A stretch of 64,000 nucleotides of DNA, from positions 1 to 64,000 of the forward strand of contig JAZDKZ010000001.1 of NCBI GenBank assembly GCA_043802485.1, read 5' to 3'. The translations under genes and the position numbers were made by a program. This DNA comes from Candidatus Aenigmatarchaeota archaeon (GTDB lineage Archaea > Aenigmatarchaeota > Aenigmatarchaeia > Aenigmatarchaeales > Aenigmatarchaeaceae). Position 1 is the stretch's first letter. Every line of letters begins with the position of its first letter. The notes beneath the pieces are model-generated. The model did not search any database, was not told where the DNA came from, and saw nothing but the letters and a program-made list of their open reading frames with translations. This document shows positions 18,458 through 54,673 of the stretch, in pieces.

Positions 18458-18568
18458 AGCCCCGTCGTCTAGCGGTCAAGGATGCAAGGCTTTGGAGTTG
18501 TCTCTAAAGAACTGATTAAAGGATGACGAAGTAACCTTGAGACACCAGTTCGAATCTGGTCGGGGCTA
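18458..18568 (+). tRNA. tRNA-Gln(TTG) with 38-nt intron at 37/38 (18496-18533)
   Basis: A1-U72 acceptor AGCCCCG/CGGGGCT, anticodon stem CAAGG/CCTTG, BHB helix CTTT/GAAG. Confidence 0.93.
18496..18533 (+). ncRNA. Putative intronic half box C/D guide (D'-C') for U34 of tRNA-Gln
   Basis: Guide CTCTAAAG 18502-18509, box CTGA 18512-18515, box ATGACGA 18523-18529. Confidence 0.6.
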
Positions 18569-18627
18569 CACTTTTTAACCAAAAGGCTTTTAAAGTATTG
18601 TTTCTAATGTAAATAGTTAGTGATTAC

Positions 18628-19050
18628 ATGGGTTTATTCAGCGGAAGAGAACTAAAAAAGAGAAAGAAAAAGTACAGGTGGAAGAAGACCAAATACAAGG
18701 TCAGGACGCTTGGGCTTAAAGCGAAAAAGGATCCGATGGAGGGAGCTCCGAGCGCCAAGGGTATAGTTCTTGCAAAAAGGGCCATTGAGCAGAAGCAGCC
18801 TCATTCAGGATTAATCAAGGTCGTCAGAGTTCAATTGCTGAAGAACAAGAAGGAGATAACAGCCTTTGTGCCAAAGTCCGGCGGCATCGGCTTCATCAAC
18901 GAGCACGACGAGGTCATAGTCGAAGGAGTCGGCGGTTCCCAGGGAGGACCTGTAGGTTCCCAGCACGGCCTTAGATGGAGGGTAATCAGTGTGAACAAAG
19001 TAGCTTTGTCCCAGCTGCTAAAGGGCAAGGTAAAGAAAGATGGTAAGTAA
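18628..19050 (+). CDS. rps12: Ribosomal protein uS12
   Basis: DPMEGAPSAKGIV, KQPHSG, VRVQLLKN. Confidence 0.95.
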   Translation: MGLFSGRELKKRKKKYRWKKTKYKVRTLGLKAKKDPMEGAPSAKGIVLAKRAIEQKQPHSGLIKVVRVQLLKNKKEITAFVPKSGGIGFINEHDEVIVEGVGGSQGGPVGSQHGLRWRVISVNKVALSQLLKGKVKKDGK

Positions 19051-19652
19051 TGTCTGAAATAAAATTGTTTGATAAATGGGATACAGCTGGCATAGCTGTC
19101 GAAGACCCAGGGCTGAGAAAGTACATCAACCTAAAGCCAGTCATAGTTCCAAGGTCATTCGGAAGGCTCAGTGGCAAGCAGTTCCACAAGTCGCAGATGC
19201 ACATCGTGGAAAGGCTGATGAACAGGCTTTTCGTCGCAGGTCACAGGGGAAAGAAGCACAGAGTGACAAGTGGCATGAACGTTGGCAAGACCTTCAGTGT
19301 TATAGACATTGTGATGGACACCTTCTCGGTGCTTGAGAAAAAGACTGGCAAGAACCCTGTCGAGGTTTTTGTCAGGGCAATTGAGAACTCTGCGATAAGG
19401 GAAGAGGTCACTGCGTTTCAGGTCGGCGGAATAATAGTCAGAAAGGCTGTGATAACATCGCCCCAGAGAAGGATTGACCTGGCCTTGAGATTAATAACAC
19501 AAGGCTCATACCACAAGGCTGCCAAGAGCCCCAAGAAGATGAACGCATGCCTGGCAGACGAGCTTCTTGCTGCTTACAACAACGATTCCCAGAACTCTTT
19601 CGCCATAAAAGGCAAGGAAAGAATCGAAAGAGAAGCTGGCGGCGCCAGATAG
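19050..19652 (+). CDS. rps7: Ribosomal protein uS7
   Basis: KLFDKWD, IVERLMNRL, SPQRRIDLALR. Confidence 0.95.
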   Translation: MSEIKLFDKWDTAGIAVEDPGLRKYINLKPVIVPRSFGRLSGKQFHKSQMHIVERLMNRLFVAGHRGKKHRVTSGMNVGKTFSVIDIVMDTFSVLEKKTGKNPVEVFVRAIENSAIREEVTAFQVGGIIVRKAVITSPQRRIDLALRLITQGSYHKAAKSPKKMNACLADELLAAYNNDSQNSFAIKGKERIEREAGGAR

Positions 19653-19970
19653 TCAGATTTTCTTTATTCTGTTTTTGATAAGCTGTTCGTCCCTTTTGAT
19701 AATCTTTTCCTCTTTCTGGACAAACTTTTCTATCTTTGGCTCTTCCCTTTTGAATATGTATTCTGTCACCTCTGCTATTATTGTGAATATCGTTGCTACT
19801 ACAGTGACCGTGCCGAGAATCATCATATTGAACTCTATCCCGTGCAGATACATGGCGCTTATGTCCTCTATCACGCCGAACGCTATAAGAAATATGAAGA
19901 ACGAGATGAACCTGAGGGTTCTTTTCTTGTGCTTATGCTTTCTGTGGTGCGGCTTTGTCTTGGATTGCAT
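19653..19970 (-). CDS. Small membrane protein inserted antisense between rps7 and EF-2
   Basis: Two hydrophobic helices; own TATA-like upstream. Confidence 0.6.
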   Translation of the reverse strand: MQSKTKPHHRKHKHKKRTLRFISFFIFLIAFGVIEDISAMYLHGIEFNMMILGTVTVVATIFTIIAEVTEYIFKREEPKIEKFVQKEEKIIKRDEQLIKNRIKKI

Positions 19971-20054
19971 AATATTAATTAATGGTCCTGCATTTTAAGC
20001 TTAATAAAAAAGCTTAAATAATATTAATTCTTATTATTCAAATCACGTGATTGG

Positions 20055-22241
20055 ATGGCTAAAGAAGAATACTCTGACGATATACAAAACCTGATGAGCA
20101 AACCCAAGAACATCAGGAATATTGGCATTGTCAGCCATATTCACCATGGCAAGACGACGCTGACAGACAACCTTGCAGCTGCGGCTGGGCTCATGGCGAA
20201 CCAGCTGGTCGGGGAAAGGATGCTTACATGGGTCGATGACCAGGAGAGGGAAAGGCTGATGACCATTTATGGCGCCACAGTCACGATGCCCCACGATTAT
20301 GAGGGGCAAAGATACCTGATTAACCTTCTTGACACGCCTGGTCACGTTGACTTTGGAGCTGACGTCACACAGGCAATGCGTGCAGTGGACGGTGCGGTTG
20401 TAATGTGCTGCGCAGTCGAGGGCATAATGCCTCAGACCGAGACTGTTCTGAGGCAGGCTATCAGTGAGAGGGTAAAACCGGTCCTGTTCATAAACAAGGT
20501 TGATCGAGCCATAAAGGAGCTGAAGCTGACGCCAGAGCAGCTGCAGAAGAGACTGGCAAAAATCGTTATCAATGTTAACAAATTCATCCAAAGATATGTG
20601 GAGCCCCAGTTCAAGGACGCATGGGTCGTAAAGGTCGAGGACGGTTCTGTCGCTTTCGGTTCTGCATTGAGGAAATGGGCAATATCAGTTCCGTTCATGC
20701 AGAGCACGGGAGTCACGTTCAATGACATTATCGACATGTGTTCACAGGACAAGGACGAGGAGTTGTATAAAAAGGCTCCTATGAACATTGTTGTTTTGGA
20801 CATGGTCATCAAGCACCTGCCGTCCCCGAAAGAGGCTCAAAAGTACAGGATAAAAAGGCTTTGGACAGGCGACCCTGAAAGCGAAACAGGAAAACAGCTT
20901 GTCAACTGCGACTCGAACGGCAAGCTTGCTGCTGTAATAACCAAGGTTGTTTATGATCCGCATGCAGGTATGATATCCACGGCAAGGATTTTTTCGGGAA
21001 AGCTGATAAGGGGCCAGAGTGTTTATCTGGTTAACAGCGGCAGGGAGGTAAAGCTGCAGCAGGTGACGACCTTTATCGCATTAAAGAGAATGCCTGTTGA
21101 AGAGGCCTTGGCTGGAAATGTTGTTGGTATTGTAGGATTGACAGATGTTGTTGTAGGAGAGACTTTGTGTGATCCTGAGAACATAATTGAAAAGTTCGAG
21201 GCCATAAAACACATCTTCGAGCCTGTTGTCACAAAGTCCATCGAGCCAAAGTCGCCGCAGGACTTGCCAAAGCTTATTGAAATCCTAAAGACTCTTAGCA
21301 GGGAGGACCCTACTCTGAAGGTCAAGGTGAATCAGGAGACTGGAGAGACTCTGGTTTCTGGTCTGGGAGAGCTGCACTTGGACGCAAAGGTAGAGAGAAA
21401 GATAAGAGAAAGGGGAATAGACATAATTGTCTCGCCTCCTATCGTTGTCTACAGGGAAAGCATATTCTCCGAATCGCCTATTATCGAAGGCAAGTCTCCA
21501 AACAAGCACAACAAGTTCTACATATCTGTCGAGCCTGTGCCTGATGAAATACGCAAGGCCATGACAGAAGGAAAGATAAGGGACGGGGAAATAAAGGGCA
21601 AGAGCCTGGAGTTCAGGCAGATGCTTGTCGACCTTGGCATGACCAAGGAGGATTCTAAAAGCGTTGTTTTAATTCATAATCACTGCATGTTCTTGGACAA
21701 CACCAAAGGTATCCAATATCTGAACGAGTCGATGGAAAACGTAAAGAGCGCATTCATCGACGTTGTGGAGAACGGTCCTCTTTCAAAGGAGCCGTGCTCT
21801 GCTATAATCGTGAGGCTGCATGATGCTGCATTGCACGAGGACGCTGTGCACAGAGGTCCTGCGCAGATCATGCCGGCAATCAGGCACCCGATAAACCAGG
21901 GCATGCTAAAGGCAGGAGTCAGCTTCCTTGAGCCAAAGCAGATAATGAGGATTGACTCCCCGCAGGACTATATAGGAAACGTTGTCGCAGAGTTGAGCAA
22001 CAGGAGGGGCGAGGTCCTGAACATAGAGCAGGAAGAGTTCTCAGCGATAATAACAGCCAAGATCCCAGTAGCAGAGATGTTCGGCTTTGAGGGGGCCCTG
22101 AAATCTTCAACTGCAGGGAAAGGCTTCCAGTCCTTGGTCGACGTCACGTTCGAGAAGGTACCGAACGAGCTGAGGGACAAGATAGCCCTGAGGATAAGGG
22201 AAAGAAAGGGTATGACCAAAGAGATTCCAAAGGCAGAGTAA
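20055..22241 (+). CDS. fusA: Translation elongation factor EF-2 (archaeal)
   Basis: NIRNIGIVSHIHHGKTT, DTPGHVDF, NKVD, diphthamide loop LHEDAVHRGPAQ. Confidence 0.96.
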   Translation: MAKEEYSDDIQNLMSKPKNIRNIGIVSHIHHGKTTLTDNLAAAAGLMANQLVGERMLTWVDDQERERLMTIYGATVTMPHDYEGQRYLINLLDTPGHVDFGADVTQAMRAVDGAVVMCCAVEGIMPQTETVLRQAISERVKPVLFINKVDRAIKELKLTPEQLQKRLAKIVINVNKFIQRYVEPQFKDAWVVKVEDGSVAFGSALRKWAISVPFMQSTGVTFNDIIDMCSQDKDEELYKKAPMNIVVLDMVIKHLPSPKEAQKYRIKRLWTGDPESETGKQLVNCDSNGKLAAVITKVVYDPHAGMISTARIFSGKLIRGQSVYLVNSGREVKLQQVTTFIALKRMPVEEALAGNVVGIVGLTDVVVGETLCDPENIIEKFEAIKHIFEPVVTKSIEPKSPQDLPKLIEILKTLSREDPTLKVKVNQETGETLVSGLGELHLDAKVERKIRERGIDIIVSPPIVVYRESIFSESPIIEGKSPNKHNKFYISVEPVPDEIRKAMTEGKIRDGEIKGKSLEFRQMLVDLGMTKEDSKSVVLIHNHCMFLDNTKGIQYLNESMENVKSAFIDVVENGPLSKEPCSAIIVRLHDAALHEDAVHRGPAQIMPAIRHPINQGMLKAGVSFLEPKQIMRIDSPQDYIGNVVAELSNRRGEVLNIEQEEFSAIITAKIPVAEMFGFEGALKSSTAGKGFQSLVDVTFEKVPNELRDKIALRIRERKGMTKEIPKAE

Positions 22242-22311
22242 TAGCTCTAGCTTCTTTTCCATGATAAACATTTAAATAGATTGCTAATGTAATTAGCTAA
22301 AAGGTGAAATT

Positions 22312-23580
22312 ATGGCAAAAAAACCACATTTAAACTTAGTAACTGTAGGACATGTTGACCATGGTAAGTCTACTCTATTAGGTAGAATCTTGTATGATAC
22401 AAAGAATCTGTCAGAAGATCAGATGAGGAAGCTAAAGGAACTGGCAAAGGACAACAAGAAGGAAACCTTTGAATTCGCTTACGCCATGGACAGATTGAAG
22501 GAAGAAAGGGAAAGAGGAGTTACTATTGACGTAATGCACCAGAGGTTCGACACACAGAAGTATTACTTTACAATTATAGACGCGCCAGGACACAGAGACT
22601 TTGTAAAGAACATGATAACCGGAGCATCACAAGCTGATGCAGCCATACTGGTCTGTTCAGCAAAAGATGGAGTACAAGAGCAGACAAAGGAGCATGTCTT
22701 CTTATTAAAAGTTTTGGGAGTAAAGCAGATTATTGTCGCCATCAACAAGATGGATGCAGTGAACTATGACGAGGCAAAGTACAAAGAGACAGTAGACAGC
22801 TGTGGAAAGCTCTTGAAAACTGTGGGATATGATGTCAGCAAAATGTTGTTTGTTCCGACATCTGGTTACAAAGGCGACAACGTTGCAAACAAGTCAGATA
22901 ACATGAAGTGGTACAGCGGACCAACACTGGTAGAAGCACTCGATACATTGACCATGCCTGAAAAGCCGACTGACAAGCCTCTAAGGCTTCCAGTCCAGGA
23001 CGTGTATACAATCACCGGAATCGGTACAGTTCCTGTAGGAAGAGTTGAGACAGGCATCTTGAAGACAGGCGATAATATAGTCTTCCAGCCATCCGGCAAG
23101 TCCGGAGAGGTAAAGACTATAGAGATGCACCATGAGCAGGTAGCACAGGCAGAACCAGGTGACAATGTAGGCTTCAGTGTGAGAGGTGTAAACAAGACAG
23201 ACATAAAGAGAGGAGATGTTGTAGGGCACGCTTCAAACCCGCCAAGAGTTGCAAAGGAATTCACGGCGCAGATAATCGTTCTGCAGCACCCCAATGTCAT
23301 AACAAAGGGATACACTCCAGTTTTCCACTGTCACACAGCGCAAGTTGCATGTAAGGTAATCGAGATAGTAAAGAAGATCGATCCAAAGACAGGTGCAGTC
23401 GTTCAAGAAAACCCAGACTTTATCAAGACCGGAGACGCTGCAGTAATCAGATGCGTTCCAAACAAACCATTTGTTGTAGAGGCTTCAAAAGACATACCTG
23501 AGCTTTCAAGATTTGCTATCAGAGACATGGGACAGACAATCGCAGCAGGCATCTGCTTGGAAGTAGTACCTGCAGAGTGA
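22312..23580 (+). CDS. tuf: Translation elongation factor EF-1 alpha
   Basis: [36 protein letters not shown]. Confidence 0.97.
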
Positions 23581-23645
23581 TTTCTTTAATTTTTCGTTTT
23601 ACTTTTTCTTTTTATTTTAAATATTTATCTATAGATATTTCTAGT

Positions 23646-24056
23646 ATGAAGGAAGAAGTCCGTTATTATAAGGTTGGATCCCATCTTTCTATGATTAGTC
23701 ATTCAGGTCCAGGAGGATGTGTATCTCATCCTATTATGAATCCTGAAGGTCATGTTTTTTATTTACCTAAAGAAGGTCTGATGATTAGTAAGAGCAAAGT
23801 GAGTGATTGGCTTCCATGTGATATAAGAGGAAAAATACCAGAAAATATGACCAAGATAGAAATTGAAGGGTATGAAATAGAAAAAATTATGAATTCTTAC
23901 AAAGAACTAAAAACTGCCGAAAAGAAATTTGCCGTGGATGCGAAGAAACAGTCAGGTAACTTGAGACCCGGAACAATGAGGATAATTAAATCAAAAAATT
24001 ATCTGGAAAAATTTTCCAAGAAATGTGAAGAAGTATTTGGAGAATATTGTAATTAA
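23646..24056 (+). CDS. Hypothetical protein (AT-rich insertion)
   Basis: ATG at 23646 about 22 nt after TTTAAATA; no recognised motif. Confidence 0.55.
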   Translation: MKEEVRYYKVGSHLSMISHSGPGGCVSHPIMNPEGHVFYLPKEGLMISKSKVSDWLPCDIRGKIPENMTKIEIEGYEIEKIMNSYKELKTAEKKFAVDAKKQSGNLRPGTMRIIKSKNYLEKFSKKCEEVFGEYCN

Positions 24057-24158
24057 TTAAACGTCTTCTTTGTGATGCAATAGATATTTAAAAATTAACT
24101 TTGCTCACAAGCAAATATAGGGAACCAATTTTTATATTGAGAAACGACATATAATATC

Positions 24159-24773
24159 ATGGCATATGATGGCATATTTTACAACAAGAGTTCGGAATTG
24201 TTATTCAACTCTTTGGATTTTGACATACTTTTGGTATCAAAGGATTTTAAGATACTGTTTGCTAACGACGCATTCCTCAAAAGGTCTGGGATGAAAAGGA
24301 AGGATGTTATTGGCCGACATTGCTACGAAATCACTCACAAACTGACCAAGCCATGCAAACCTCCGAAGGACCCGTGTCCCATCCAAAAAGTCATTAGAAC
24401 TGGAAAGACAATTATAGTCACCCACACTCATTTGACCAAAAAAGGGAAGTGCCTGGTGAACGTAACGGCATCCCCATTAAGGAACAAAGACGGGCTCTGC
24501 TTCTTGCACATATCCATGCCTGTTAGCGAATCGAAGACCGCAAGCATGAAGAAAGCCATGAAAAAAACAAAGAACATTCTGAATGTCTTAAGTCTGTATC
24601 AGCGCCAGCTGGACGATTTGAAGAAGACAAAGGACATACTCGAGGAAAAGGTGGATGAACTGGAAAGGTTCAACAAATTAACGATTAACAGGGAGCTTAA
24701 AATGATTGAACTCAAGAAGAAGATAAGAATGCTGGAAAATGAATCCCGCTCCGGCATTCATACCACAAAATAA
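24159..24773 (+). CDS. PAS-domain protein with C-terminal coiled coil, no kinase/output domain
   Basis: ILFANDAF...DVIGRHCYEITH...CP...VTASP; ends LERFNKLTINRELKMIELKKKI. Confidence 0.8.
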   Translation: MAYDGIFYNKSSELLFNSLDFDILLVSKDFKILFANDAFLKRSGMKRKDVIGRHCYEITHKLTKPCKPPKDPCPIQKVIRTGKTIIVTHTHLTKKGKCLVNVTASPLRNKDGLCFLHISMPVSESKTASMKKAMKKTKNILNVLSLYQRQLDDLKKTKDILEEKVDELERFNKLTINRELKMIELKKKIRMLENESRSGIHTTK

Positions 24774-24934
24774 GAGTTACAATATTTCCTATTATATATA
24801 TGAAAATAACCTGGTGAAACGCCCGGGAGGCATTTTCTGTTAAATTTTATGGTTTCTAAGTTTTAATGATTGCTGAATATATATGCTTAAGTCATCAGTC
24901 ATTTATTTAAATACTTTCACAAATAGTTAGAGAT

Positions 24935-25255
24935 ATGCAAAAAGCCAGGATAAAATTGATGAGCAGAGACACGAAGAAAATTGATGATGTCTGCACTGAG
25001 CTTAAGATGATAACGGACAAGTTCGGCGTAGCCATGCATGGACCAATTCCTCTGCCAACCAAAAAACTTCAGATAACAACGATGAAGACACCCTGCGGTG
25101 ACGGCTGCGGCCACGGCAACGCCACATGGGACAGGTGGCAAATGAGAATACATAAGAGGGTCATTGACATTTCTGCTGACGAGAGAACATTAAGACAAAT
25201 AATGCGTGTCACAATTCCTGACGGAGTCTCTATTTCTATCCAACTAAAGGATTAG
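24935..25255 (+). CDS. rps10: Ribosomal protein uS10
   Basis: GPIPLPTK, TWDRWQMRIHKRVIDI. Confidence 0.95.
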   Translation: MQKARIKLMSRDTKKIDDVCTELKMITDKFGVAMHGPIPLPTKKLQITTMKTPCGDGCGHGNATWDRWQMRIHKRVIDISADERTLRQIMRVTIPDGVSISIQLKD

Positions 25256-25494
25256 CGCAACCTTAACAGACTGTTCTTGTACTTTACAAACCACTTTACG
25301 AAAATGCCGAACACCATGCCTAGAAGCAATGTGAAGAGCATCAAGAATATGATATTCATGCACTGCACATTCTTGTTATTAACTCCTGACAGGAACGGCA
25401 TCATCAAGAACACCACAGAAAAGAGCACCAGTATGATGCACACGCTAAATAGGAACTCTAGGAACTTTGTATCAATCTCATACTGCGAAGCCAT
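25252..25494 (-). CDS. Small membrane protein (2 TM)
   Basis: Two hydrophobic helices. Confidence 0.5.
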   Translation of the reverse strand: MASQYEIDTKFLEFLFSVCIILVLFSVVFLMMPFLSGVNNKNVQCMNIIFLMLFTLLLGMVFGIFVKWFVKYKNSLLRLR

Positions 25495-25547
25495 ATAATT
25501 AGTTAAATTTCAAGATTTAAAAATCCTTTCAAACAACTATTATCTTA

Positions 25548-25651
25548 GCCGAGATCGCATAATCTGGTATTGCGCTAGATCTCAACCTGAGAGGCGAACC
25601 TGGAAAGCTAGTTTCCGCAAGGATATGGGGGTTCAAATCCCTCTCTCGGCG
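25548..25651 (+). tRNA. tRNA-Ser(GGA) with 20-nt intron at non-canonical position 30/31 (25579-25598)
   Basis: Removing ATCTCAACCTGAGAGGCGAA restores CTAGC-CTGGAAA-GCTAG; long variable arm; BHB helix CGCT/GGCG. Confidence 0.9.
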
Positions 25652-25687
25652 CTCCTTTTTTTAAATACCAAACATAATTATTCTTTC

Positions 25688-26152
25688 ATGCTTGAAGAGA
25701 CGATTGCTGTCATAGTCGCTAACATACTTCCTACCATGGAGCAGATAGGTGGTATACCACTTGGCATTGCTTTGGGTCTGGATCCTTTGTATTCATTGAT
25801 GGTGTCTTTGACAGTCAACTGTCTTCTGTTCTTCCCCGTATACTTTGGTTTGAAGGTTTTCTATGACAGGGTATTTTCCAAAATAAAGCTTTTCAACAGG
25901 TATCTGGAAAAGGTGAGAAGAAAGGGCCAGCCTTATGTCGACAAATACGGAGTTCTTGGTTTAACTTTGTTTATTTCATTGCCAACCCCTTTGACAGGGA
26001 CCTACACTGCATCAATTCTGAGCTGGTTGTTGAACTTGGACTGGAAAAGGTCATTCATAGCTATAGTTATCGGCTCAACGATAGGCGGAATTATAATACT
26101 TTCCTCAGTTTTGGGTTTCTTGGAAGTCCTGAAATTCATCGTTTCTGTCTGA
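25688..26152 (+). CDS. Small multidrug export-like membrane protein (COG2426)
   Basis: LPTMEQIGGIPLGIALG, FISLPTPLTGTYTA. The ORF-track start at 25625 lies inside the tRNA, so ATG 25688 is used. Confidence 0.8.
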   Translation: MLEETIAVIVANILPTMEQIGGIPLGIALGLDPLYSLMVSLTVNCLLFFPVYFGLKVFYDRVFSKIKLFNRYLEKVRRKGQPYVDKYGVLGLTLFISLPTPLTGTYTASILSWLLNLDWKRSFIAIVIGSTIGGIIILSSVLGFLEVLKFIVSV

Positions 26153-26501
26153 ATAAGATTTAAATATCAGTTCTTCTATAAAATTTAAGGAAAGATTTAC
26201 TCTTTCTTTCGAGTGATAAAATGGCTACAAAATATAGAAAAATAAGACAATTACTACATCGACACGAACCCGTTTTAAGCACAGTAATACCCGATGATTT
26301 TCAAGAATATCATAATAGATATGGTGGAGAGAACTCAAACAGGGTTTCAGCCAAGACATGTAATAAAGATTATGATTTTCTTTGTCAAGTGCTGAAAAGG
26401 AAATAAATCTTTAAATACATTCTCTTCCTATTAAGATAGGAAAGTTTTCGTGGTAACGTGTTCTGATAGATTTAAATATATTCAAAAGAGAAATTGGTTT
26501 T

Positions 26502-45641: not shown

Positions 45642-45723
45642 TTCCAACACCTTCAACCTTATTCTGCCCTAGGCGGAGGCAGTGAGAAATCAAGCATATA
45701 AAAAACAAAGATAATTCTATATC

Positions 45724-46650
45724 ATGGGCTGGCTGATAAAAAAGCACGAGGCGTCCCTGACCGATTATGGATGCTATCCTGGCGCAAGGCCGTTGAAGGA
45801 ATACGTAAACAACGGCATAACAGTTCTTGACAAGCCGTCGGGTCCGACGTCCAACCAGGTAGATACTTGGGTCAAGGAGATTCTGAAAATAGATAAATGC
45901 TCCCACGCCGGCACCTTGGATCCGAGAGCGACGGGCGTCCTTGTCATTGCATTGGAGAACGCGACAAAATTGATGCCCATTATGCTTTCGGTCAAAAAGG
46001 AATACGTCGGCATAATGTATCTGCACGAGGACGTTGATGAGAAGAAGATAAGAAAGGTCTTCAAGGACTTTGTAGGAAAGGTAAAGCAGCTGCCGCCACT
46101 GAAATCGGCGGTCGCAAGAAGAGTAAGGGAAAGGGAAATTTATTATCTTGAGATTCTGGAAATAGACGGAAGGAACATACTCTTCAAGGTCGGTTGCCAA
46201 GCAGGCTTCTACGTGAGACGCCTGGCAGTGGACGTGGGGGAGAAGCTCGGCGTAAAGTCCCATCTCAAGGAATTGAGAAGGACCAAGAGCGGCAACTTCT
46301 CGGAAGATGCTGCCATAACCTTGCAGGACCTGCTCTATGCTGTTGAAGATGACAGAATCAAGGAAGTGGTCCAGCCCATGGAGATAGCCATGGAGTCGGT
46401 CGGCAAGGTAATTATTTCTGACACTTCCGTCGACAACGTGTGCAATGGATCGCCGCTATACACCGGCGGCATAACAAGGCTGGAGGACAGCATCAGGAAG
46501 GGTGACTGGGTCGCTGTTTTCAGTTTGAAAGGGGAGTTAATTGCAATAGGAAAGTCAACAATGAATTCCAAGGACATGGCCAAGAAAAGAGGATTAGCCG
46601 TCAAGATAGACCGGGTGCTGATGAAAATGGGAACCTACCCTAAAGCCTGA
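45724..46650 (+). CDS. cbf5: H/ACA pseudouridine synthase Cbf5/TruB
   Basis: LDKPSGPTS, HAGTLDP, LKELRRTKSG, PUA domain. Confidence 0.94.
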   Translation: MGWLIKKHEASLTDYGCYPGARPLKEYVNNGITVLDKPSGPTSNQVDTWVKEILKIDKCSHAGTLDPRATGVLVIALENATKLMPIMLSVKKEYVGIMYLHEDVDEKKIRKVFKDFVGKVKQLPPLKSAVARRVREREIYYLEILEIDGRNILFKVGCQAGFYVRRLAVDVGEKLGVKSHLKELRRTKSGNFSEDAAITLQDLLYAVEDDRIKEVVQPMEIAMESVGKVIISDTSVDNVCNGSPLYTGGITRLEDSIRKGDWVAVFSLKGELIAIGKSTMNSKDMAKKRGLAVKIDRVLMKMGTYPKA

Positions 46651-46906
46651 AAAGCTCGAAAGCGCTGAAAACCCATTGTAACAACAATACGACCGAGGAC
46701 ACAAGCACGATAGCCAGCCATATGTAGAATATTATCCTGTAGTTGATATTCTTGTCAAGTACGTAGATGGTTGACGAAAAGCCTAGAGTTATTAGAATGA
46801 ATACAAAGCCGATATAATAGTCCTCGGTAAAAACCGCGAGATACGAGGAATACAGCAGCCCGAAAACAACTAGGAACAATATCAGGATTTTTTCAATGGT
46901 TTTCAT
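46640..46906 (-). CDS. Small membrane protein (3 TM)
   Basis: MKTIEKILILFLVV; three hydrophobic segments. Confidence 0.6.
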   Translation of the reverse strand: MKTIEKILILFLVVFGLLYSSYLAVFTEDYYIGFVFILITLGFSSTIYVLDKNINYRIIFYIWLAIVLVSSVVLLLQWVFSAFELFRL

Positions 46907-46910
46907 CTCA

Positions 46911-48911
46911 TCACCCATCCTTGGTATAGACGTAGACAACCTTATGCGTACGCCTTGGTTGGTCTTTGTACATAAGGAATACAACGACAGCTGCTATTAT
47001 AGCGACAATCACTATTATCAAAGGAACCGTGTAGTCTAAACCGACTTCTGACCTTATTTCCATAAAGTTCTCTCTGGATTCCGACCATGCTCCGTTCGTG
47101 TCGTTGGAGTAGACCTTCCATGCGACTACTCCGTATGCGTTGTTGACAGCATCCTTCATAACGTCTATGCTTCCGTCCGTTCCTTCGAGGGAAATCCATG
47201 AGTCGTTCACCCAGCTTCCTGTGTCGTTCATGGAGAATATGTAGCCGGAAAGCCCCCTGTCATCAGACAGGACGAATGAAAACACGACAGGCTCATCCTC
47301 CTTTACTGGAGACGATGAAAAGTCATAATATGAAGGAGGCTGGTTGGCAGCAGGCTCGGCTTTGTTTATCGACAGAGGCATTTTGCCTGTGGCTGATACA
47401 GTCCCGTTGGCAGTCTTTCCATTAACCTTTATCAAGACATCAATGTATTCTGGATTGCTTTCAGATGGGATGTCAAAATTTATTTTGATTATCACGTAGC
47501 CTCCCTTGAGAAGTGCGCTAGGCACGCCCTTGACCGAGTACCAGCTTGTCTGTACATTCTCCACGACAACTTCAAAGTTGGTGACAGTCTCGTCCAAGGT
47601 GCTTGACAGGTTGAAAGTCCCCTCTGCGCTCTGGCCGAGCTTCACATAGACCGAGGACACGTCGGTTATCTTGAACTCCTTCTTTGCTTCAGTCGGCTTC
47701 TTTTTATACTCTGTCACGACAGTCAAGTTTTTTCTCAACGTCTGGTTGGTGTAGTTCTTGTTGCCGTCCGTTTTGCATATGTACTCGTAATAACCGACCG
47801 GCAGCATTGATACATCCATCCTTTCAGACATGCTGGTGTTTTCTATCTTGGTGGAGTTCCTGTGGAAATCGAAATTCTTTATGGATATCTGGTCCGTCAG
47901 CGACCAGCAGTTCACAACTGAAGTCGTGCCGTTGAGTATCTCATCAAAAGGAGCGTAAAGATTCAGCGCGAAGGCTTTGAACAGCCTGTAAGACCTTTGT
48001 TCTGTACCTGTCCAGCTGCCTGAATCATCCTTGGCGTACCATCTGTAGACAAAATTTGCTGGGAATATATCTGTCAGATTTATCCAGAATGTGCCTGATT
48101 GGTTGTAAACTTTGGGGTTGGTGCTTGTCGTATAGTTCTTTTTGCTGCCCGTATGGTTGGATTCAAACCTGACTTCTGTCAGGGTCACGTCTGTCCAAGA
48201 TATGTTGAAATAGTATGACTGGTTGGGTGCATAGGTCGCATAATCTAACGGATTCGTGTTGATGTTGTAGTATTGCGGTGGGGTGCTGTCGAAATAGAAC
48301 GCCTTCCATGCTGCATTATAGAAATCATCCCCGTTCCATGAAGCGTTCAGAACAAATACGCCTTCGTAAGTCAGGTTCGCCAAAGCGTATATGACAGAAC
48401 TGTCATTTTGTACATCCAGACCAGGATAGTCTGAATCAAGAAAAACGGTTTTTCCAGGGATATTTAGTTTTGCAGTGAAATTCGCGGCAGTGTTCTTGCT
48501 ATAGCTTCGATTGCCCTCTGTACCGTTCAGATACAGGCTGAAAGCAGCAGAAGTGTTTTTGGTCACGCTGTACGGAAAGTAATCGGTAACATTGGTATTA
48601 GACTCATTATCAACGGCAAACCATCTGTAGGAATAATCTGTTGGAAATAAGCCGGTAAAATTTATGAAATAAAGATTCATGACATTGGAAACTGTCGAGT
48701 TGACAATGGTGCCGGATGAGTGATTGGTCAGCTCGAAGAGGACACCTGAAATCAACTTTCCATCACCGTTCCATGTTATTCGAAAGTCGTAGCTTCTCTC
48801 AGGGCTGTACTGGGTTCCAGAAGTTGGTGAAGCGTAAGCATCCGACCATGACAATGCATATGCGTTCGTAGACAAAAGTAACAGAGCAATAATTACAATC
48901 GACAATTTCAT
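46911..48911 (-). CDS. Secreted, C-terminally anchored surface glycoprotein
   Basis: Signal peptide, many N-x-S/T sequons, repeated YSYRWFA/YRWYAKD/WKVYSND beta modules, C-terminal TM. Confidence 0.8.
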   Translation of the reverse strand: MKLSIVIIALLLLSTNAYALSWSDAYASPTSGTQYSPERSYDFRITWNGDGKLISGVLFELTNHSSGTIVNSTVSNVMNLYFINFTGLFPTDYSYRWFAVDNESNTNVTDYFPYSVTKNTSAAFSLYLNGTEGNRSYSKNTAANFTAKLNIPGKTVFLDSDYPGLDVQNDSSVIYALANLTYEGVFVLNASWNGDDFYNAAWKAFYFDSTPPQYYNINTNPLDYATYAPNQSYYFNISWTDVTLTEVRFESNHTGSKKNYTTSTNPKVYNQSGTFWINLTDIFPANFVYRWYAKDDSGSWTGTEQRSYRLFKAFALNLYAPFDEILNGTTSVVNCWSLTDQISIKNFDFHRNSTKIENTSMSERMDVSMLPVGYYEYICKTDGNKNYTNQTLRKNLTVVTEYKKKPTEAKKEFKITDVSSVYVKLGQSAEGTFNLSSTLDETVTNFEVVVENVQTSWYSVKGVPSALLKGGYVIIKINFDIPSESNPEYIDVLIKVNGKTANGTVSATGKMPLSINKAEPAANQPPSYYDFSSSPVKEDEPVVFSFVLSDDRGLSGYIFSMNDTGSWVNDSWISLEGTDGSIDVMKDAVNNAYGVVAWKVYSNDTNGAWSESRENFMEIRSEVGLDYTVPLIIVIVAIIAAVVVFLMYKDQPRRTHKVVYVYTKDG

Positions 48912-49018
48912 ATATAATAGATATAACAGTCGAATTAAAATATCTAATCTAATTTTTCTTGTTCAATGCCAAAATAAACTTAATAAGCAGGTAATACAAT
49001 TTAGTAGCAGGTGATTAA

Positions 49019-49258
49019 ATGGTATTTGGAATAGGAAGAAAAAAGAAAACAACGAAAAAGAGAACAGTAAAGAGAAAAGTAACAAAGAAAAAAACAGCAA
49101 AAAGAAAGTCAGCCAAGAAGGGCAAGGCTTTCGGTGGTTACATGATAAGGCCAAACGCAGACTTGGCAAAGATAATCGGCAACAAGCCGGTTTCACCTTC
49201 TGAGATGACCAAGAATATCTGGACCTATATCAAGAGAAGAAAACTTGCGGGCAGATAA
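49019..49258 (+). CDS. Basic protein with truncated SWIB/MDM2-like domain
   Basis: K/R-rich N-half, then FGGYMIRPNADLAKIIGNKPVSPSEMTKNIWTYIKRRKL; SD AGGTGA. Confidence 0.7.
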   Translation: MVFGIGRKKKTTKKRTVKRKVTKKKTAKRKSAKKGKAFGGYMIRPNADLAKIIGNKPVSPSEMTKNIWTYIKRRKLAGR

Positions 49259-49331
49259 TTGTTTTTTTCAGCACAAGATAGAGCATGATTTCTATAAGCT
49301 TTAAAAGGTTAAAAACATTTAAAGAGTTTAT

Positions 49332-49486
49332 GCCGACGTGGCAGAACCAGGTTAATGCGCTAGACTTGAGGACATATGATTAGATGGCTTGACTCCGAAT
49401 GCGGCGAAATGAGGAATGATAGGCGAAATGATGTCTAGAAATCTAGTGCCCGCAAGGGCTTGCAGGTTCAAATCCTGCCGTCGGCG
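49332..49486 (+). tRNA. tRNA-Ser(TGA) with 70-nt intron at 37/38 (49371-49440)
   Basis: GCCGACG/CGTCGGC acceptor, CTAGA/TCTAG anticodon stem, GCCC-GCAA-GGGC variable arm, G73. Confidence 0.92.
49371..49440 (+). ncRNA. Intron-encoded double-guide box C/D sRNA
   Basis: C ATGATTA 49376-82, 12-nt guide, D' CCGA 49395-98, C' ATGAGGA 49409-15, 12-nt guide, D ATGA 49428-31, terminal stem GACA/TGTC. Confidence 0.8.
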
Positions 49487-49522
49487 CTTTTTCTTTAAGA
49501 AACTCAAAAACCAATAAGGTCT

Positions 49523-49813
49523 ATGAAGAAAAAATGTAGACATGATATCAAGATAGAAATTATGGTAAAACTTTTCAAGCCTATGACAAGCGGTTCTCTA
49601 AATCAAGAGGTGAGATTGAGTTCCATTAAATTGAAAAAAAATCTGGACGAACTCAAAGAAAGAATGTTGATAAGTGAGCTCAGGAACAAGGACGGCACAG
49701 TCCTCTATCACACGACCCCAAAAGGTAGGAAGCTGGTCAAGTTCTATAAGGATTTGTCAGACCATCTCGAAGGCAAGGATGCACTTCCCCACATTTTTGG
49801 CGTTTATAGATAG
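49523..49813 (+). CDS. Winged-helix DNA-binding protein
   Basis: LDELKERMLI...YHTTPKGRKLV pattern of small archaeal wHTH proteins. Confidence 0.65.
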   Translation: MKKKCRHDIKIEIMVKLFKPMTSGSLNQEVRLSSIKLKKNLDELKERMLISELRNKDGTVLYHTTPKGRKLVKFYKDLSDHLEGKDALPHIFGVYR

Positions 49814-49844
49814 ACTTTTTTATCAGTTAAACGAATAGAAATAT

Positions 49845-50192
49845 ATGGTGTTTTTAGCTCAAGTGTTGCCGTTCTCGGTTGGTAACATAGTGCCTATAGT
49901 CATCAGCATCTTGTTCGGAGCAGTCACTGCATGGATAAGCGCTCAGATAGTCAGCAGGCATGCCTCATTGCAAGGAGCCTTGTTGTTCTCTGTTGTGTCG
50001 TATGTTGTTATCATGATATCAGTCTTCATACCCACCATAGCAATCCCTTTCATCAGCACGATGTTCGCGATAGAAGCTGTGATAAAGAGCTTGCTTGCGA
50101 TGAAATTCTTCAATACAGACTTTCGCAGTGGCTTGGCGATAACAGGCGTCCAGATGCTTCTGGGCATGATTTTAATAATTCCCTATTTCTAG
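49845..50192 (+). CDS. Small membrane protein (4 TM)
   Basis: Hydrophobic throughout. Confidence 0.65.
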   Translation: MVFLAQVLPFSVGNIVPIVISILFGAVTAWISAQIVSRHASLQGALLFSVVSYVVIMISVFIPTIAIPFISTMFAIEAVIKSLLAMKFFNTDFRSGLAITGVQMLLGMILIIPYF

Positions 50193-51442
50193 CTCTTTAT
50201 GCTGGACAGCTTCTTGGATGCCTTCTTGTCCACACTTTTCAGCTCGCTGTCGCACCTTTTCATCCTTCTTCCTATGACAGAAACACCCAAAGTGGATACC
50301 ACAACGCTGGAGATTATCACCACAATTATCGTGTCTGATAACAGCGAGGCCCCTATTATGTTGGAGGACCTTATGATCTCTGCAAGAACAGCTGCTGCCA
50401 GACCCCTTCCAAGAACAATGCTCATAACCATCTTGTTGCTTCCTAGAATCTTGTCCTTGAATGAAATCAGGGTGACAGACATATACCTGCCCACAAAAAG
50501 TATCAGGGTTATCACAATTCCGTATATGACCGGCTGATAGCTGTTGACAGCGAATATCAGGCCTATGAAGACGAAGAAGAACGTCCTTATGAAGAAGGAC
50601 ATCTGAGAGTGGAACTTTTTCATGACCTTGCTTGCCTCTATCCTCTCCTTTATGCCTATCACCCTCAGTATCCTTATGCCGTTGCCAAGGACAAGCCCGA
50701 AGGTCAGGGCGAATATGGCACCGTTGCCTCCAAGCATCTCTGTTATCGAATACAGCAGAAGCACTATAGCCAAGGTCAGTATGTCATCGTATATCTCCTT
50801 CTTTATCAGCTTTAGCACCTTCAGCCAGAGAATGCCTGCCGCCAGGCCGATGACTATAGCTATGGAGAAAGCTGCGGCTATCCTGTTGCCTGCCTCATAC
50901 ACGCCACTGGACAAGGGGCTGATGAGCAGTTGCAGAATGGTCAGGCCGAAAACGATGACCAGAGCATCTGTAAAGGCCGACTCTAGACTGAGAACCGTGG
51001 AAACCTTTTCACTTATCTTGAGCCTGCTTATCAGCGGTATCACAACAGAAGAGCTTATGCCTCCCAGCACAGCTCCAAGCAGCAGGCCGTTGAGAAAGTC
51101 CCACCTTAGCACAAAGTAGGTGAAAGACGCTATGAATATAACTGAAACGAAGAAGCTTGTCAGCGTGAGGGCGGTTGCTTTCGGACTGTCCTTTAGCACT
51201 TTTTTTATGTCCAGGTTCAGGCCGGCATCAAAAAGTATTATCAGCAATGCCAGGGCGGAGAACAGCTCTGAAATGGGCATCAGGACGTCCGGGTCAATCA
51301 CTCCGAAGAGCGGTCCTAGGACAATACCCAAAGCCACCAGAATCAGGATGTCTGGTATACTTGTCTTTTTAAATAGATAATTTCCTATAAAACCTAAGAT
51401 AAGGATTAACGATGCTAGGGCAAACGTTAAAACAACAGACAT
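50189..51442 (-). CDS. Cation:proton antiporter (CPA1/NhaP-like)
   Basis: ALLIILFDAGL, LSLESAFTD, FFFVFIG, GRGLAAAVLA. Confidence 0.88.
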   Translation of the reverse strand: MSVVLTFALASLILILGFIGNYLFKKTSIPDILILVALGIVLGPLFGVIDPDVLMPISELFSALALLIILFDAGLNLDIKKVLKDSPKATALTLTSFFVSVIFIASFTYFVLRWDFLNGLLLGAVLGGISSSVVIPLISRLKISEKVSTVLSLESAFTDALVIVFGLTILQLLISPLSSGVYEAGNRIAAAFSIAIVIGLAAGILWLKVLKLIKKEIYDDILTLAIVLLLYSITEMLGGNGAIFALTFGLVLGNGIRILRVIGIKERIEASKVMKKFHSQMSFFIRTFFFVFIGLIFAVNSYQPVIYGIVITLILFVGRYMSVTLISFKDKILGSNKMVMSIVLGRGLAAAVLAEIIRSSNIIGASLLSDTIIVVIISSVVVSTLGVSVIGRRMKRCDSELKSVDKKASKKLSSIKS

Positions 51443-51528
51443 AAATAAAATATCAAGTGATTAACTTATAAATCTTGATTTTATAAAGATTTATAAACAT
51501 TGATTTTTATAATGAAAAAAGTGATGAT

Positions 51529-52137
51529 ATGGGTTCAAAGAGGTTAAAAGAAGCAGGCAAGCAAAAAAAGCCAGAGGAAGAAAAGAAGGCAGAAACTCCT
51601 AAACCTAAAAAGGCCAAGAAAAAGATAGAGGGCATGAGGGAAATAGTCAGAGTTTCTGAGGTCAACCTTGACGGAAACAAGAAGCTGGGAAACGCATTGC
51701 TGGGAATCAGCGGGGTTGGCAAGACGCTGGCGAACAAGATAGCTATTGCAGGCGGCTTTGACCCCAACAGACCGCTCGGGTTTCTGAAGGAGGAAGACGT
51801 AAAGAAGCTGGAAGACGCGATAAACAACCCTTCAAAGTACGGAATACCGACATTCATGCTTAACAGAAGGTCAGAACTCCTGACAGGGGAGGCTCATCAT
51901 CTTGTCAGCTCCAAGCTGAGATTCGCAGTAAAGTCTGACATCGATGCGATGAGGAAGATGAGAAGCTACAAGGGCATCAGGCATGAGACAGGCCTGCCTG
52001 TAAGGGGGCAGAGGACAAGGACAAGCTTCAGAGGAGGAAGGGCTGTCGGTGTCGCAAAGAAGAAGGAGCAGAGGAGCGCTGCAAGAAAGGACGCTGCTGC
52101 GGCACCTGTGGAAAAGTCAGCAAAAGGTAAAAAGTGA
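51529..52137 (+). CDS. rps13: Ribosomal protein uS13
   Basis: NLDGNK, MLNRR, YKGIRHETGLPVRGQRTRT. Confidence 0.95.
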   Translation: MGSKRLKEAGKQKKPEEEKKAETPKPKKAKKKIEGMREIVRVSEVNLDGNKKLGNALLGISGVGKTLANKIAIAGGFDPNRPLGFLKEEDVKKLEDAINNPSKYGIPTFMLNRRSELLTGEAHHLVSSKLRFAVKSDIDAMRKMRSYKGIRHETGLPVRGQRTRTSFRGGRAVGVAKKKEQRSAARKDAAAAPVEKSAKGKK

Positions 52138-52295
52138 TTGAATGGCAATAAAACCTATATGTGATAAATGCGGTGACGAATTGAAAGAATTTGGGGGAAT
52201 ATTATTATCTCCGCCAGACGATGACATGGTAAAAAAATGGCATTTATGCAAGTCATGCTGTGAGAGTATAATTGATGATTTAGAGTGATTGAATG
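52133..52295 (+). repeat. 12-bp direct repeat AGTGATTGAATG flanking the inserted microgene
   Basis: Exact copies at 52133-52144 and 52284-52295. Confidence 0.8.
52142..52288 (+). CDS. Zn-finger microprotein (48 aa) inserted between uS13 and uS4
   Basis: Hand-translated MAIKPICDKCGDELKEFGGILLSPPDDDMVKKWHLCKSCCESIIDDLE. Confidence 0.75.
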   Translation: MAIKPICDKCGDELKEFGGILLSPPDDDMVKKWHLCKSCCESIIDDLE

Positions 52296-52772
52296 AGAAA
52301 ACAAAATAAAAAATACGACATGCCGCTAAAGCCTTGGGACAAGACAAGGATTGAAGACGAGAGAAAGCTTGCCCAGGAATACGGACTCAGGAGAAAAAAA
52401 GAGATATGGAAGACAGAATCGGTCCTGAGAAACTACAGGAGACTGGCCAGGGGCTTGGCAGCAAGGTCGAACAAGGATAATGAAAAGATACTTTTAGACA
52501 AGCTCTTCAAGATAGGCCTTATCGGCAAGGATGCTGATCTGGACGATGTTCTGGCATTAACAATAGAGAAACTGCTAAACAGGAGGCTGCAGACACTTGT
52601 CTTCAAGAGAGGCATATGCCCGACAGTGAAGCAGGCAAGGCAGATGATTGTCCATGGCCACATAGCGGTCGACGGCAGAAAGGCGAGATGGCCTAGCACG
52701 ATTGTAACGATAGCAGAAGAGGACAAGATTTCTATTTACGAACTAAGCAAAATGAAGGGTGGAAAACAATGA
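52293..52772 (+). CDS. rps4: Ribosomal protein uS4
   Basis: [36 protein letters not shown]. Confidence 0.95.
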
Positions 52773-53170
52773 GAGGGCCTAGCCAGAATTTGAGATGGGG
52801 AATAGCGCACATATTCAGCTCTTCGAATAACACCATCATCAAGATAACTGATATCACTGGTGCGGAGTCGATAGCAACGATATCCGCAGGAATGATGTCC
52901 GACAAGGACAGGGAAGGGGGTTCTCCCTATCCGGCTTTGTTGGCTGCATCAAAGGCCGCAGAGATTGCCATGGAAAAGGGCATAACCGCCGTTCATGTAA
53001 GGATCAGAGCCCCTGGCGGGATAAAGTCAAAGAATCCTGGGGCAGGAGCGCAGCCAGCGATAAGGGCCTTGGCCAGAGCCGGTCTAAGAATAGGCAGGAT
53101 AGAGGACACGACCCCTATCGGTCATGGTTTTATGAAGTCAAAGGGCGGAAGAAGAGGAAGAAGAATCTGA
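52769..53170 (+). CDS. rps11: Ribosomal protein uS11
   Basis: [30 protein letters not shown]. Confidence 0.95.
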
Positions 53171-53218
53171 GGGAAATCTTAATAAACAACCATTACAATT
53201 GATTACTAAAGTGATGAC

Positions 53219-53998
53219 TTGAAAATAAAAATCTTGAAAAAAACAGACAGGGAAATGGAATTCTTATTGGAAGAGACCAACCCCCAGTTCGCCAACGCCC
53301 TGAGAAGGATAATGATATCTGAGATACCTGTGCTGGCAATCCAGACAGTCGACTTTTCAACCAATGACTCTGTTCTATACAACGAGATGCTTGCCCACAG
53401 GATGGGTCTGATACCCATCATGTTCAAGTACAAGGACTTTCATTTCAAGGACAAGCATGAGGAAGGCAAGACATGCTCTGAATGCGAAGTGGCTTTTGCC
53501 ATAAACAAAAAAGGACCATGTATGATCTACACGAAAGACATGAAGTCCAGCAATCCTGACGTAAAGCCACTCTTTGATGACATACCGGTAGTCGAGCTGT
53601 TCAAAGGTCAGAACCTGAAGTTTGAGGCATACGCTTCTTTGGGAGTGGGCAAGGACCATGCAAGGCACCAGGGAGCCATAGCAGCCTACAAGTACTTTCC
53701 GACTGTAAAGGTCAGCGGCCTGAAGAATGCTGATGAATGCGTCAAGGTCTGCCCGAAGCATGCCTTGAAGACAGACGGCAAGAAGGCGTCCGTTGAAACG
53801 ACATGCGACCTTTGCGGCGAGTGCGTCAAGACGGCTGATCCAAAGGGAAGCCTTGAGATAACAGGCGACCCGACAAGCTTCATATTTTCTATCGAGTCTG
53901 TCTCGGGGCTTGATGTAAAGGACTTGGTGATGCAGGCGGTCGACATCCTCAAGAAGAAGGTCAAGGACTTTGAGAAAGAAGCCAAGAAGATAAAGTAA
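53219..53998 (+). CDS. rpoD: RNA polymerase subunit D (Rpo3) with Fe-S domain
   Basis: FANALRR, EMLAHRMGLIP, CVKVCP...CDLCGEC. Confidence 0.94.
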   Translation: MKIKILKKTDREMEFLLEETNPQFANALRRIMISEIPVLAIQTVDFSTNDSVLYNEMLAHRMGLIPIMFKYKDFHFKDKHEEGKTCSECEVAFAINKKGPCMIYTKDMKSSNPDVKPLFDDIPVVELFKGQNLKFEAYASLGVGKDHARHQGAIAAYKYFPTVKVSGLKNADECVKVCPKHALKTDGKKASVETTCDLCGECVKTADPKGSLEITGDPTSFIFSIESVSGLDVKDLVMQAVDILKKKVKDFEKEAKKIK

Positions 53999-54031
53999 AG
54001 CTTAAATTCTTTTCTTACTATATTTATTTTT

Positions 54032-54500
54032 ATGTCGACTATAATGTTCAAAAGCGATGAAATAAGTCTGACAAAGAACAAAGAGGTTTATAGAATAAAG
54101 GTAGCTGATAGTGCTAAATATCGTGGTATTGAGCTTCCTATAAGTTTCGATGGAAAAGAGTTGTCACAATTCTCAGAAGAAGTTAAAAAACTTTACGATA
54201 ATATAAAAGTTGGTACATGGTTTGGTGTTTTGGAAGTTGAAGCTAAGAAAGGTGTTTTTTCCCTTTCAAAAGAAAGCAAAATATGGGTTGTTATCCAAAA
54301 ATGGTAAATTAACTATAAGGTCTGAACGCTCGATAACAAATAGAGCTAAACCATATGATTTATGTTTTATTGATAAAACCCTAAGAGAAACTATATTAGG
54401 TAAGAAGTTAAAGGAATACTGGATAGTCAATGATGAGATTTCTGTTGATGAAGCGCAAAAAAGGTTAGAAAAAATAACACTATCTCCAAACGTGTTTTGA
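54032..54500 (+). pseudogene. Hypothetical gene probably split by a frameshift in a T6 run (54255-54260)
   Basis: Two overlapping AT-rich ORFs (54032-54307, 54210-54500); removing one T joins them. Confidence 0.4.
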
Positions 54501-54541
54501 AATAGTAAATTTATAAGCTTCTTAACATATTTTTTAATCAC

Positions 54542-54673
54542 GCGGAGGTAGCCAAGTCTGGTCAAAGGCGCAGGACTTAAGATAACTTAAGTTTTGATGC
54601 AAGTTCGTCTTGCGGTGATAAGAAATCCTGTCTCTTAGTGGGTTCGTCGGTTCAAATCCGGCCCTCCGCACCA
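54542..54673 (+). tRNA. tRNA-Leu(TAA) with 43-nt intron at 37/38 (54582-54624), CCA encoded
   Basis: GCGGAGG/CCTCCGC, CAGGA/TCCTG anticodon stem, long variable arm, BHB helix CTTA/TAAG. Confidence 0.93.
54582..54624 (+). ncRNA. Putative intronic half box C/D guide (D'-C') for U34 of tRNA-Leu
   Basis: Guide CTTAAGTT 54586-93, box TTGA 54594-97, hairpin GCAAG/CTTGC, box GTGATAA 54615-21. Confidence 0.62.

Follow-up and report, generated by a model that had tools for sequence, protein, structure and literature searches.

Many tRNA introns of an archaeon of the Candidatus Aenigmatarchaeota probably act as cassettes for guide RNAs in guided 2'-O-methylation. The window, i.e. the whole stretch of DNA analysed, covers 64,000 nucleotides (nt) at the start of contig JAZDKZ010000001.1 (C1) of assembly GCA_043802485.1, a 769-kb genome (G000) that is 89% complete; positions given without a contig name refer to this window, in which all tRNA features lie on the forward strand. 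An Rfam search retrieved six tRNA genes, of which tRNA-Arg(CCU) and tRNA-Pro(GGG) lie outside the part (18458..54673) treated in a preliminary description. Introns are present in five of the six genes (13, 38, 20, 70 and 43 nt), as that description had stated, and box parsing bore out that the three longer ones, of tRNA-Gln(UUG), tRNA-Ser(UGA) and tRNA-Leu(UAA), contain C/D-type boxes and guides and that the two short ones do not. Two modes of guidance had been proposed, namely half-guides for position 34 of the host tRNA and a full guide for rRNA, and both are supported by register, shuffled controls and conservation. The evidence read from the sequence consists of layout, register, conservation, covariation, isotype specificity, a pairing partner in the pre-tRNA, and the presence of the genes for the proteins concerned.

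The introns of tRNA-Gln(UUG) (18458..18568; intron 18496-18533, at position 37/38) and tRNA-Leu(UAA) (54542..54670; intron 54582-54624) share one layout, consisting of a guide, 2 nt, an NNGA box, a loop and an RTGANNA box. The guide pairs over 7-8 nt with the anticodon loop of its own tRNA; the D-type box stands two bases on, followed by a loop or hairpin and the C-type box, and U34 (18492 in Gln, 54578 in Leu) is at +5 in both. The Gln self-guide (18502..18509) forms 8 bp, one of them G-U, with nt 32-37 and intron nt 1-2, position 18507 being opposite U34 at +5 from D'. It is followed by a single kink-loop (K-loop; 18512..18529) made up of D' (18512-18515), a 7-nt loop and C' (18523-18529). 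The Leu cassette (54586..54621) consists of the self-guide (54586-54593), D' (54594-54597), a 5-bp hairpin and C' (54615-54621). Introns of this type show the geometry of a kink-turn (K-turn) or K-loop, i.e. tandem G-A pairs followed by D-C box base pairing, and obey the +5 rule on a fixed target. The central helix of the bulge-helix-bulge (BHB) fold has 4/4 pairs in Gln and Leu and 3/4 in Ser(UGA), and the genome encodes the splicing endonuclease EndA. As in the known guide of the tRNA-Trp intron, a guide in a 37/38 BHB intron faces nt 34 of the unspliced host pre-tRNA. The four boxes and the second guide for U39 of that system were found neither in the Gln and Leu introns nor in the 35-nt Trp intron of this genome. 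The Gln and Leu introns, which each have a single RTGA and a single D-type box, lack the two motifs (C/D and C'/D') of an archaeal box C/D sRNA; judged by sequence, they act like half of such an sRNA and are not canonical members.

The register was assessed on a genome-wide set of 16 canonical introns at 37/38, which did not include Tyr or the initiator Met with its two introns. Six of these, namely Gln(UUG), Leu(UAA), Glu(UUC), Arg(UCU), Met(CAU) and Trp(CCA), passed a strict test for nt 34 in register. Shuffled introns, proposed in the preliminary description as a control, nearly never match (mean 0.037 passes and maximum 2 in 5000 shuffles of the set), and zero of the 16 introns pass when the target is displaced by 1-3 nt. 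Each guide fits its own loop, the seven off-diagonal matches being due to similar loops or to the Ser intron. Furthermore, the guide tracks changes in its host, as in tRNA-Glu(UUC), whose loop has C32-C33 and whose guide carries the matching GG. The isotypes that pass decode either NNR codons of split boxes or one codon each (AUG, UGG). Half-guides had been proposed for U34; this nucleotide is indeed targeted, but so is C34 (Met, Trp and, in relatives, Leu(CAA)). A C at the nearly invariant position 33 was seen in tRNA-Glu(UUC) of this genome (L144:140-254) and in tRNA-Gln(UUG) of two relatives (L200 and L206); the guide matches it in G000 and L206, and not in L200.

The layout is conserved among relatives. 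A pattern for tRNA-Gln(UUG) that required guide, GA and T-loop, with the C box left free, matched in 72 of 185,579 species, and RTGA followed downstream in 69 of these 72, versus 15±3 (maximum 26) in shuffles. The titles of the 72 records name Ca. Aenigmatarchaeota (46), 'archaeon' (22), and Nanoarchaeota, Woesearchaeota, Ca. Haiyanarchaeum and Bacteroidota (one each); this near-restriction to Aenigmatarchaeota is partly built in, because the D-loop letters of the pattern were fixed from close relatives. The one bacterial match (L048) was rejected, its anticodon stem being absent. A covariance model made from 15 such genes was searched against 41 genomes of the class and five title-selected genomes. 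Outside G000, 134 of its 138 hits were retrieved, representing 131 loci, with 123 introns parsed and 11 loci left unparsed; two parses that proved wrong on inspection are retained in the counts. Family f14 gave zero model hits among five genomes. Guides in register with nt 34 were present in 76 of 95 introns of eight isotypes, where about 0.4 are expected from shuffles: Met (16/16), Trp (13/16), Leu(UAA) (9/9), Leu(CAA) (4/4), Gln(UUG) (15/16), Glu(UUC) (8/12), Arg(UCU) (5/7) and Lys(UUU) (6/15). The remaining isotypes had such a guide in 0 of 28 introns, 21 of which are at least 28 nt long. The pattern thus recurs in other tRNAs and in relatives, a second check put forward in the preliminary description. 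Guide, GA and RTGA are fixed while spacer and loop are free in sequence and length, and the box bases covary, the first D base and the sixth C base forming a Watson-Crick pair in 64 of 74 cases, compared with 36±3 when partners are permuted. An independent Met pattern matched in 155 of 201 genomes of the phylum, all from one class, versus about 37 for the reversed pattern (a by-eye count of matches taken without individual checks).

Several variants were observed among these introns. A ninth isotype, tRNA-Ser(CGA) of G023 (L132), occurs once with a 39-nt intron that holds a C34 self-guide and a K-turn. The tRNA-Arg(CCU) introns of G058 and G078 (L215, L254) keep the K-turn and have no guide in the nt-34 register. 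Lys introns with a 4-nt spacer (L221, L238, L318) bring C32 to +5, and no TrmJ turned up in the genomes concerned (G013, G046); the Lys(UUU) intron of G000 (L145:126-247) is of the same type, with the D' GA lost. Where extra introns occur in the anticodon loop or stem (L243, L283, L120-L122), the self-guide or the host loop can be read only once the first intron has been taken out, and this implies that splicing is ordered.

The second mode is represented by tRNA-Ser(UGA) (49332..49486), whose 70-nt intron (49371-49440) carries, within a short terminal stem, the boxes C, D', C' and D in order and two guides of 10-12 nt, the organization of a box C/D sRNA. Its first half (49376..49398) comprises C (49376-49382), the D' guide (49384-49393) and the D' box (49395-49398), and its second half (49409..49431) C' (49409-49415), the D guide (49416-49427) and the D box (49428-49431). 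The D boxes, CCGA and ATGA, are non-consensus, yet they pair with their C partners. The D' guide forms 10 Watson-Crick pairs with the 16S rRNA of this genome, the predicted target being A1362 (E. coli A1408) in the decoding site. The D guide reaches at least 9 bp with a Watson-Crick pair at +5 at two alternative 16S sites, C217 (9 Watson-Crick pairs) and C1356 (E. coli C1402; 9 pairs, 2 of them G-U); for the D guide type of this genome, C217 (conserved core) is the favoured site. Neither guide has a 23S target of at least 9 bp Watson-Crick. The proposal of a full trans guide for rRNA holds well for the predicted A1408 target, but the second target is ambiguous. Targeting of its own U34, absent from this Ser(UGA) intron, was found in 5 of 49 relatives.

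A strict A1408 cassette was found in 49 of 151 genomes of the class, hosted by 43 tRNA-Ser(UGA) introns and by six inserts near the 3' end of the 16S rRNA gene, at three positions. These inserts (L359, L360, L364, L366, L367 and L369, in G076, G131, G140, G127, G095 and G161) place the cassette between its two predicted targets. The other guide slot of the 49 cassettes is directed to the 16S anti-Shine-Dalgarno (anti-SD) sequence (16), U39 of the host (14) or U34 of the host (5), or is of the type of this genome (6). The U39 module, always Ser-hosted (L344, L374-L376, L378-L387), consists of an upstream D-stem-C. Like its counterpart in the Haloferax Trp intron, it reaches over the 3' splice site to stand in register with host U39; a downstream D box is missing from several of these introns. 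The D'-C' loop (49399..49408) contains a conserved G-rich element, complementary to 16S rRNA just 5' of the guide duplex, that recurs in 32 of the 43 Ser-hosted copies (33 by script, corrected by eye for two false positives and one false negative) and in 0 of 6 rRNA-hosted ones. This element could provide extra base pairing with 16S rRNA upstream of the duplex, by analogy with the extra pairing to rRNA described for yeast snoRNAs (PMC3116282). A genome-wide scan for free C/D sRNAs gave four candidates versus 2-6 in controls, and since candidates stay at control level only the Ser intron stands, an absence of free sRNAs not being established thereby. One candidate within control level, at G000:C2:5639 (forward strand), has a 10-bp match to 16S C615.

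By sequence, the Ser(UGA) intron belongs among the box C/D sRNAs, as a homologue of sR13 of Nanoarchaeum equitans. The latter, C/D box sRNA 13, is described as free-standing between two genes, with an RNA-seq coverage of 45,100 (PMC3491384, PMC4644070). It has the same D' guide in the same register on 16S rRNA (Am1373 there, equivalent to E. coli A1408), guide and target having changed together; A1408 is listed as a predicted site in both N. equitans and Sulfolobus acidocaldarius (PMC4644070). Its second guide matches the anti-SD guide of 16 of the 49 relatives and differs from the second guide found here, and the hosts differ as well, as the present cassette lies within a tRNA-Ser(UGA) intron.

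The partner of the self-guides is the unspliced pre-tRNA, as the guides match intron rather than exon bases. Among 63 cases in which the first intron base is not identical to nt 38 of the mature tRNA, 55 show pairing of the guide with the intron base and 7 with the exon base; one position further on, the figures are 40 and 9 of 53. In 7/7 pre-tRNAs the calculated stability of the guide hairpin exceeds that of the BHB fold by 2.0-7.8 kcal/mol, and the two folds are mutually exclusive because both need nt 32-35. The genome encodes fibrillarin, Nop5 and L7Ae, and the BHB introns would be guide cassettes for the L7Ae-Nop5-fibrillarin methyltransferase. A first type would comprise the Gln and Leu introns of the window and the Glu, Arg(UCU), Met and Trp introns elsewhere in the genome. 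In a new pre-tRNA, the anticodon loop and the intron guide would form a hairpin beside one K-loop, L7Ae would bind this K-loop, Nop5 and fibrillarin would be loaded, and the ribose of nt 34 would be methylated by the +5 rule before splicing. Upon refolding, nt 32-35 would pair with the 3' end of the intron to give the BHB motif, from which EndA would excise the intron. The likely purpose is a stiffened wobble base in tRNAs that read NNR codons of split boxes. In the second type, that of tRNA-Ser(UGA), splicing would free an sRNA with two K-turns, which would thus be made by means of a tRNA promoter and splicing and would guide methylation of 16S A1408 in trans.

Several points weigh against this mechanism. 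The guides are short (7-10 bp) and the boxes often non-consensus. The Leu loop, CTTAAG, is palindromic, so that the Leu guide is also a direct repeat of its own loop, which does not apply to the Gln, Glu, Arg, Met and Trp loops. The Lys(UUU) intron of this genome has a guide and a C box with the D' GA lost; among relatives Lys(UUU) passes in 6 of 15 cases only, four others fitting position 32 instead, and further degenerate copies (Trp in G067, Arg in G051) and off-register copies occur. The census figure of 76 of 95 is a count and not a frequency, because positives are over-represented with a model built on introns of this kind and the genomes share ancestry. By itself, a 10-bp match to rRNA is at chance level in the genome-wide sRNA scan, so that the Ser case rests on conservation. 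In addition, synthetic single-motif RNPs are reported to methylate with loss of site specificity in vitro (PMC1635284), and for the Trp intron experiments in vitro speak for action in trans (PMC2584109). A natural one-motif guide therefore needs another anchor, which may be either the tethered hairpin with the anticodon stem, or a Nop5 dimer shared by two pre-tRNAs. The second option amounts to a variant of the proposed mechanism with methylation retained, in which the Nop5 dimer would receive its two K-loops from separate molecules, either two pre-tRNAs or one pre-tRNA and one excised intron, so that a two-motif RNP is re-formed, the nt 34 methylated being that of the partner. This variant would suit both in-vitro reports, and pairing with intron nt 1-2 is compatible with any unspliced partner. 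However, in 131 of 134 cases there are 2-14 nt between the guide and nt 37, so few that an intramolecular hairpin should form first, and this hairpin is the predicted fold. The preliminary description had called the half-guides cis-acting; the unspliced pre-tRNA as substrate is upheld, but action on the same molecule is no more than favoured, and the two-molecule variant is possible though doubtful.

The modification enzymes of the genome bear on a further alternative, according to which the U34 guides replace a 2-thiolation or C5 modification lost in reduced genomes. No SpoU-family (TrmJ/TrmL), NcsA-type or Elp3 gene was found in the 89%-complete genome, and FtsJ matches were rejected as generic methyltransferases rather than Trm7/RlmE (the two best, when checked, being BioC/UbiE-like and ArsM). 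Of 15 genomes that lack an NcsA-type gene, 11 have a U34 guide in Gln, Glu or Lys, compared with 5 of 26 that possess such a gene, nine hand-parsed genes being added, a trend confounded in that eight of the 15 NcsA-less genomes belong to one order, guide detection is limited by the model threshold and the genomes are incomplete. Yet, guides stand alongside NcsA and Elp3 in G042 and G076, and s2Um34 shows that both marks are compatible (PMC7668247). A correlation with Trm7/TrmJ/TrmL-type enzymes had been proposed as a check; no strict anti-correlation with TrmJ-type enzymes appeared, as 3 of 10 SpoU-positive genomes carry guides. Given such coexistence in relatives, the idea that guides strictly take the place of TrmJ, NcsA or Elp3 was rejected, and a looser replacement is rather unlikely.

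An improbable alternative dispenses with methylation: K-loop and hairpin would form a switch, sensitive to L7Ae, by which splicing is delayed or regulated. The mutual exclusion of the two folds would suit such a switch, as would the off-register K-loop retained in some Lys and Arg(CCU) introns and a 2026 preprint that describes intronic kink-loop RNAs regulating mRNA splicing (10.64898/2026.08.03.742641). However, a switch needs neither nt 34 at +5, as in 76 cases, nor a restriction to isotypes whose wobble base is known as a methylation target. Very improbable, and largely refuted already by conservation, is the view that the cassettes are now neutral, either as relics of guides that worked in the past or as by-products of how the introns arose (by duplication or a hairpin at the insertion site), for which the direct repeat in Leu, the degenerate copies and the dispensable Trp intron of Haloferax (PMC4090602) may be adduced, but against which stand the fixed guide, GA and RTGA amid free spacers and loops, the covarying box bases and the excess of the Met pattern over its reversed control.

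Part of this design is known. The pre-tRNA-Trp intron (Haloferax volcanii; Pyrococcus sR50) is described as a box C/D guide for Cm34 and Um39 (PMC4090602, PMC7994747, PMC11408192, PMC2584109), and pre-tRNA-Trp is named as the intron-borne guide in reviews of 2008-2024. It shares with the self-guides a guide in a 37/38 BHB intron, nt 34 of the host as target and the unspliced pre-tRNA as substrate. As described there, it has two motifs and two guides in about 100 nt of one isotype and is termed unique, whereas the self-guides have one K-loop and one guide in 27-73 nt and occur in eight isotypes, including U34 tRNAs. The Met guide, intronic here, always lies outside the intron according to PMC2584109. 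The intron RNA of elongator tRNA-Met of N. equitans is reported as abundant and as a possible C/D RNA, a single case with its target given as 'no prediction' (PMC3491384). Its listed sequence resembles the self-guides in an anticodon-complementary guide, 2 nt, CUGA, a hairpin and a C-like box, and can be read with C34 at +5. The layout, which the preliminary description had ascribed to one lineage, is thus not limited to it; the same description had put precedents at a few tRNA species, which holds for the Trp guide and is to be extended by this Met intron without a published target. Free archaeal sRNAs are described that target nt 34 of Leu-CAA, Leu-UAA, Met and Trp (PMC7994747), and the Gln-UUG wobble is a target of a free sRNA in other archaea (PMC6009581; PMC7668247). 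Such sRNAs (Leu-CAA, Leu-UAA and Met in Pyrococcus; Gln, Trp, Val and Thr in Pyrobaculum; Gln in Sulfolobus) have the same predicted targets and chemistry, but are separate two-motif genes acting in trans. The synthetic hemi-RNP has one motif and one guide, like the self-guides, and is catalytically active, but it is engineered and not site-specific, and the two-motif design is called absolutely conserved in nature in that paper (PMC1635284). Outside subscription papers and preprint supplements, the literature yielded no paper on self-guides in several isotypes, on U34 self-guides or on tRNA or rRNA introns that host an rRNA guide. A design described mainly for one tRNA is thereby extended.

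Under the proposed mechanism, a large group of archaeal tRNA introns, the purpose of which is an old question, would have a concrete function that is conserved. It would also provide one-motif guides that occur in nature, whereas two motifs had been judged from experiments in vitro to be required for specificity, and introns of 33-43 nt as minimal substrates for the unsettled cis/trans question of the Trp intron. The occurrence of a single rRNA guide as a free sRNA, in a tRNA intron and in rRNA inserts parallels, in archaea, the snoRNAs that reside in introns. An annotation confined to enzymes and free sRNAs would give too low a count of RNA modification in reduced archaea. The chances are about even for a broader reading, in which natural single-kink-turn guides are made site-specific by the host pre-tRNA as anchor, a whole phylum of the DPANN archaea marks the wobble bases of split boxes with methylation gating splicing, the BHB introns of tRNA and rRNA are interchangeable slots for moving guide modules, and most guide RNAs of the genome may be intronic.

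The other tRNA genes of the window complete the set. Two served as negative controls, namely tRNA-Arg(CCU) (7739..7827), whose 13-nt intron (7779-7791) has no box, and tRNA-Ser(GGA) (25548..25651), whose 20-nt intron (25579-25598, at 30/31; ends parsed by eye) has one CTGA and no RTGA, and hence no C box; tRNA-Pro(GGG) (58263..58336) is intronless. ARAGORN without the intron option recovered two of the six tRNAs, and its output at a relaxed score was discarded as mainly noise. The Rfam search named no C/D family in the window at the gathering threshold. Elsewhere in the genome, a tRNA-Ile with anticodon UAU (L148, G000:C7:69848-69987) has two introns, one of them in the T arm. The 23S rRNA (L002, G000:C6, around 6460-6620) is about 165 nt longer than the Rfam model, probably through an insert in domains V-VI with box-like motifs at a chance-level score. 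Of 20 16S rRNA sequences read from the same order (L001, L162-L190), 19 have U where E. coli has C1404, and G000 and some relatives have U at 1400. Finally, genes for the pseudouridine synthase Cbf5 (45724-46650) and the wyosine synthase TYW1 (59077-59997) are present in the window, indicating that other RNA modification pathways are retained.

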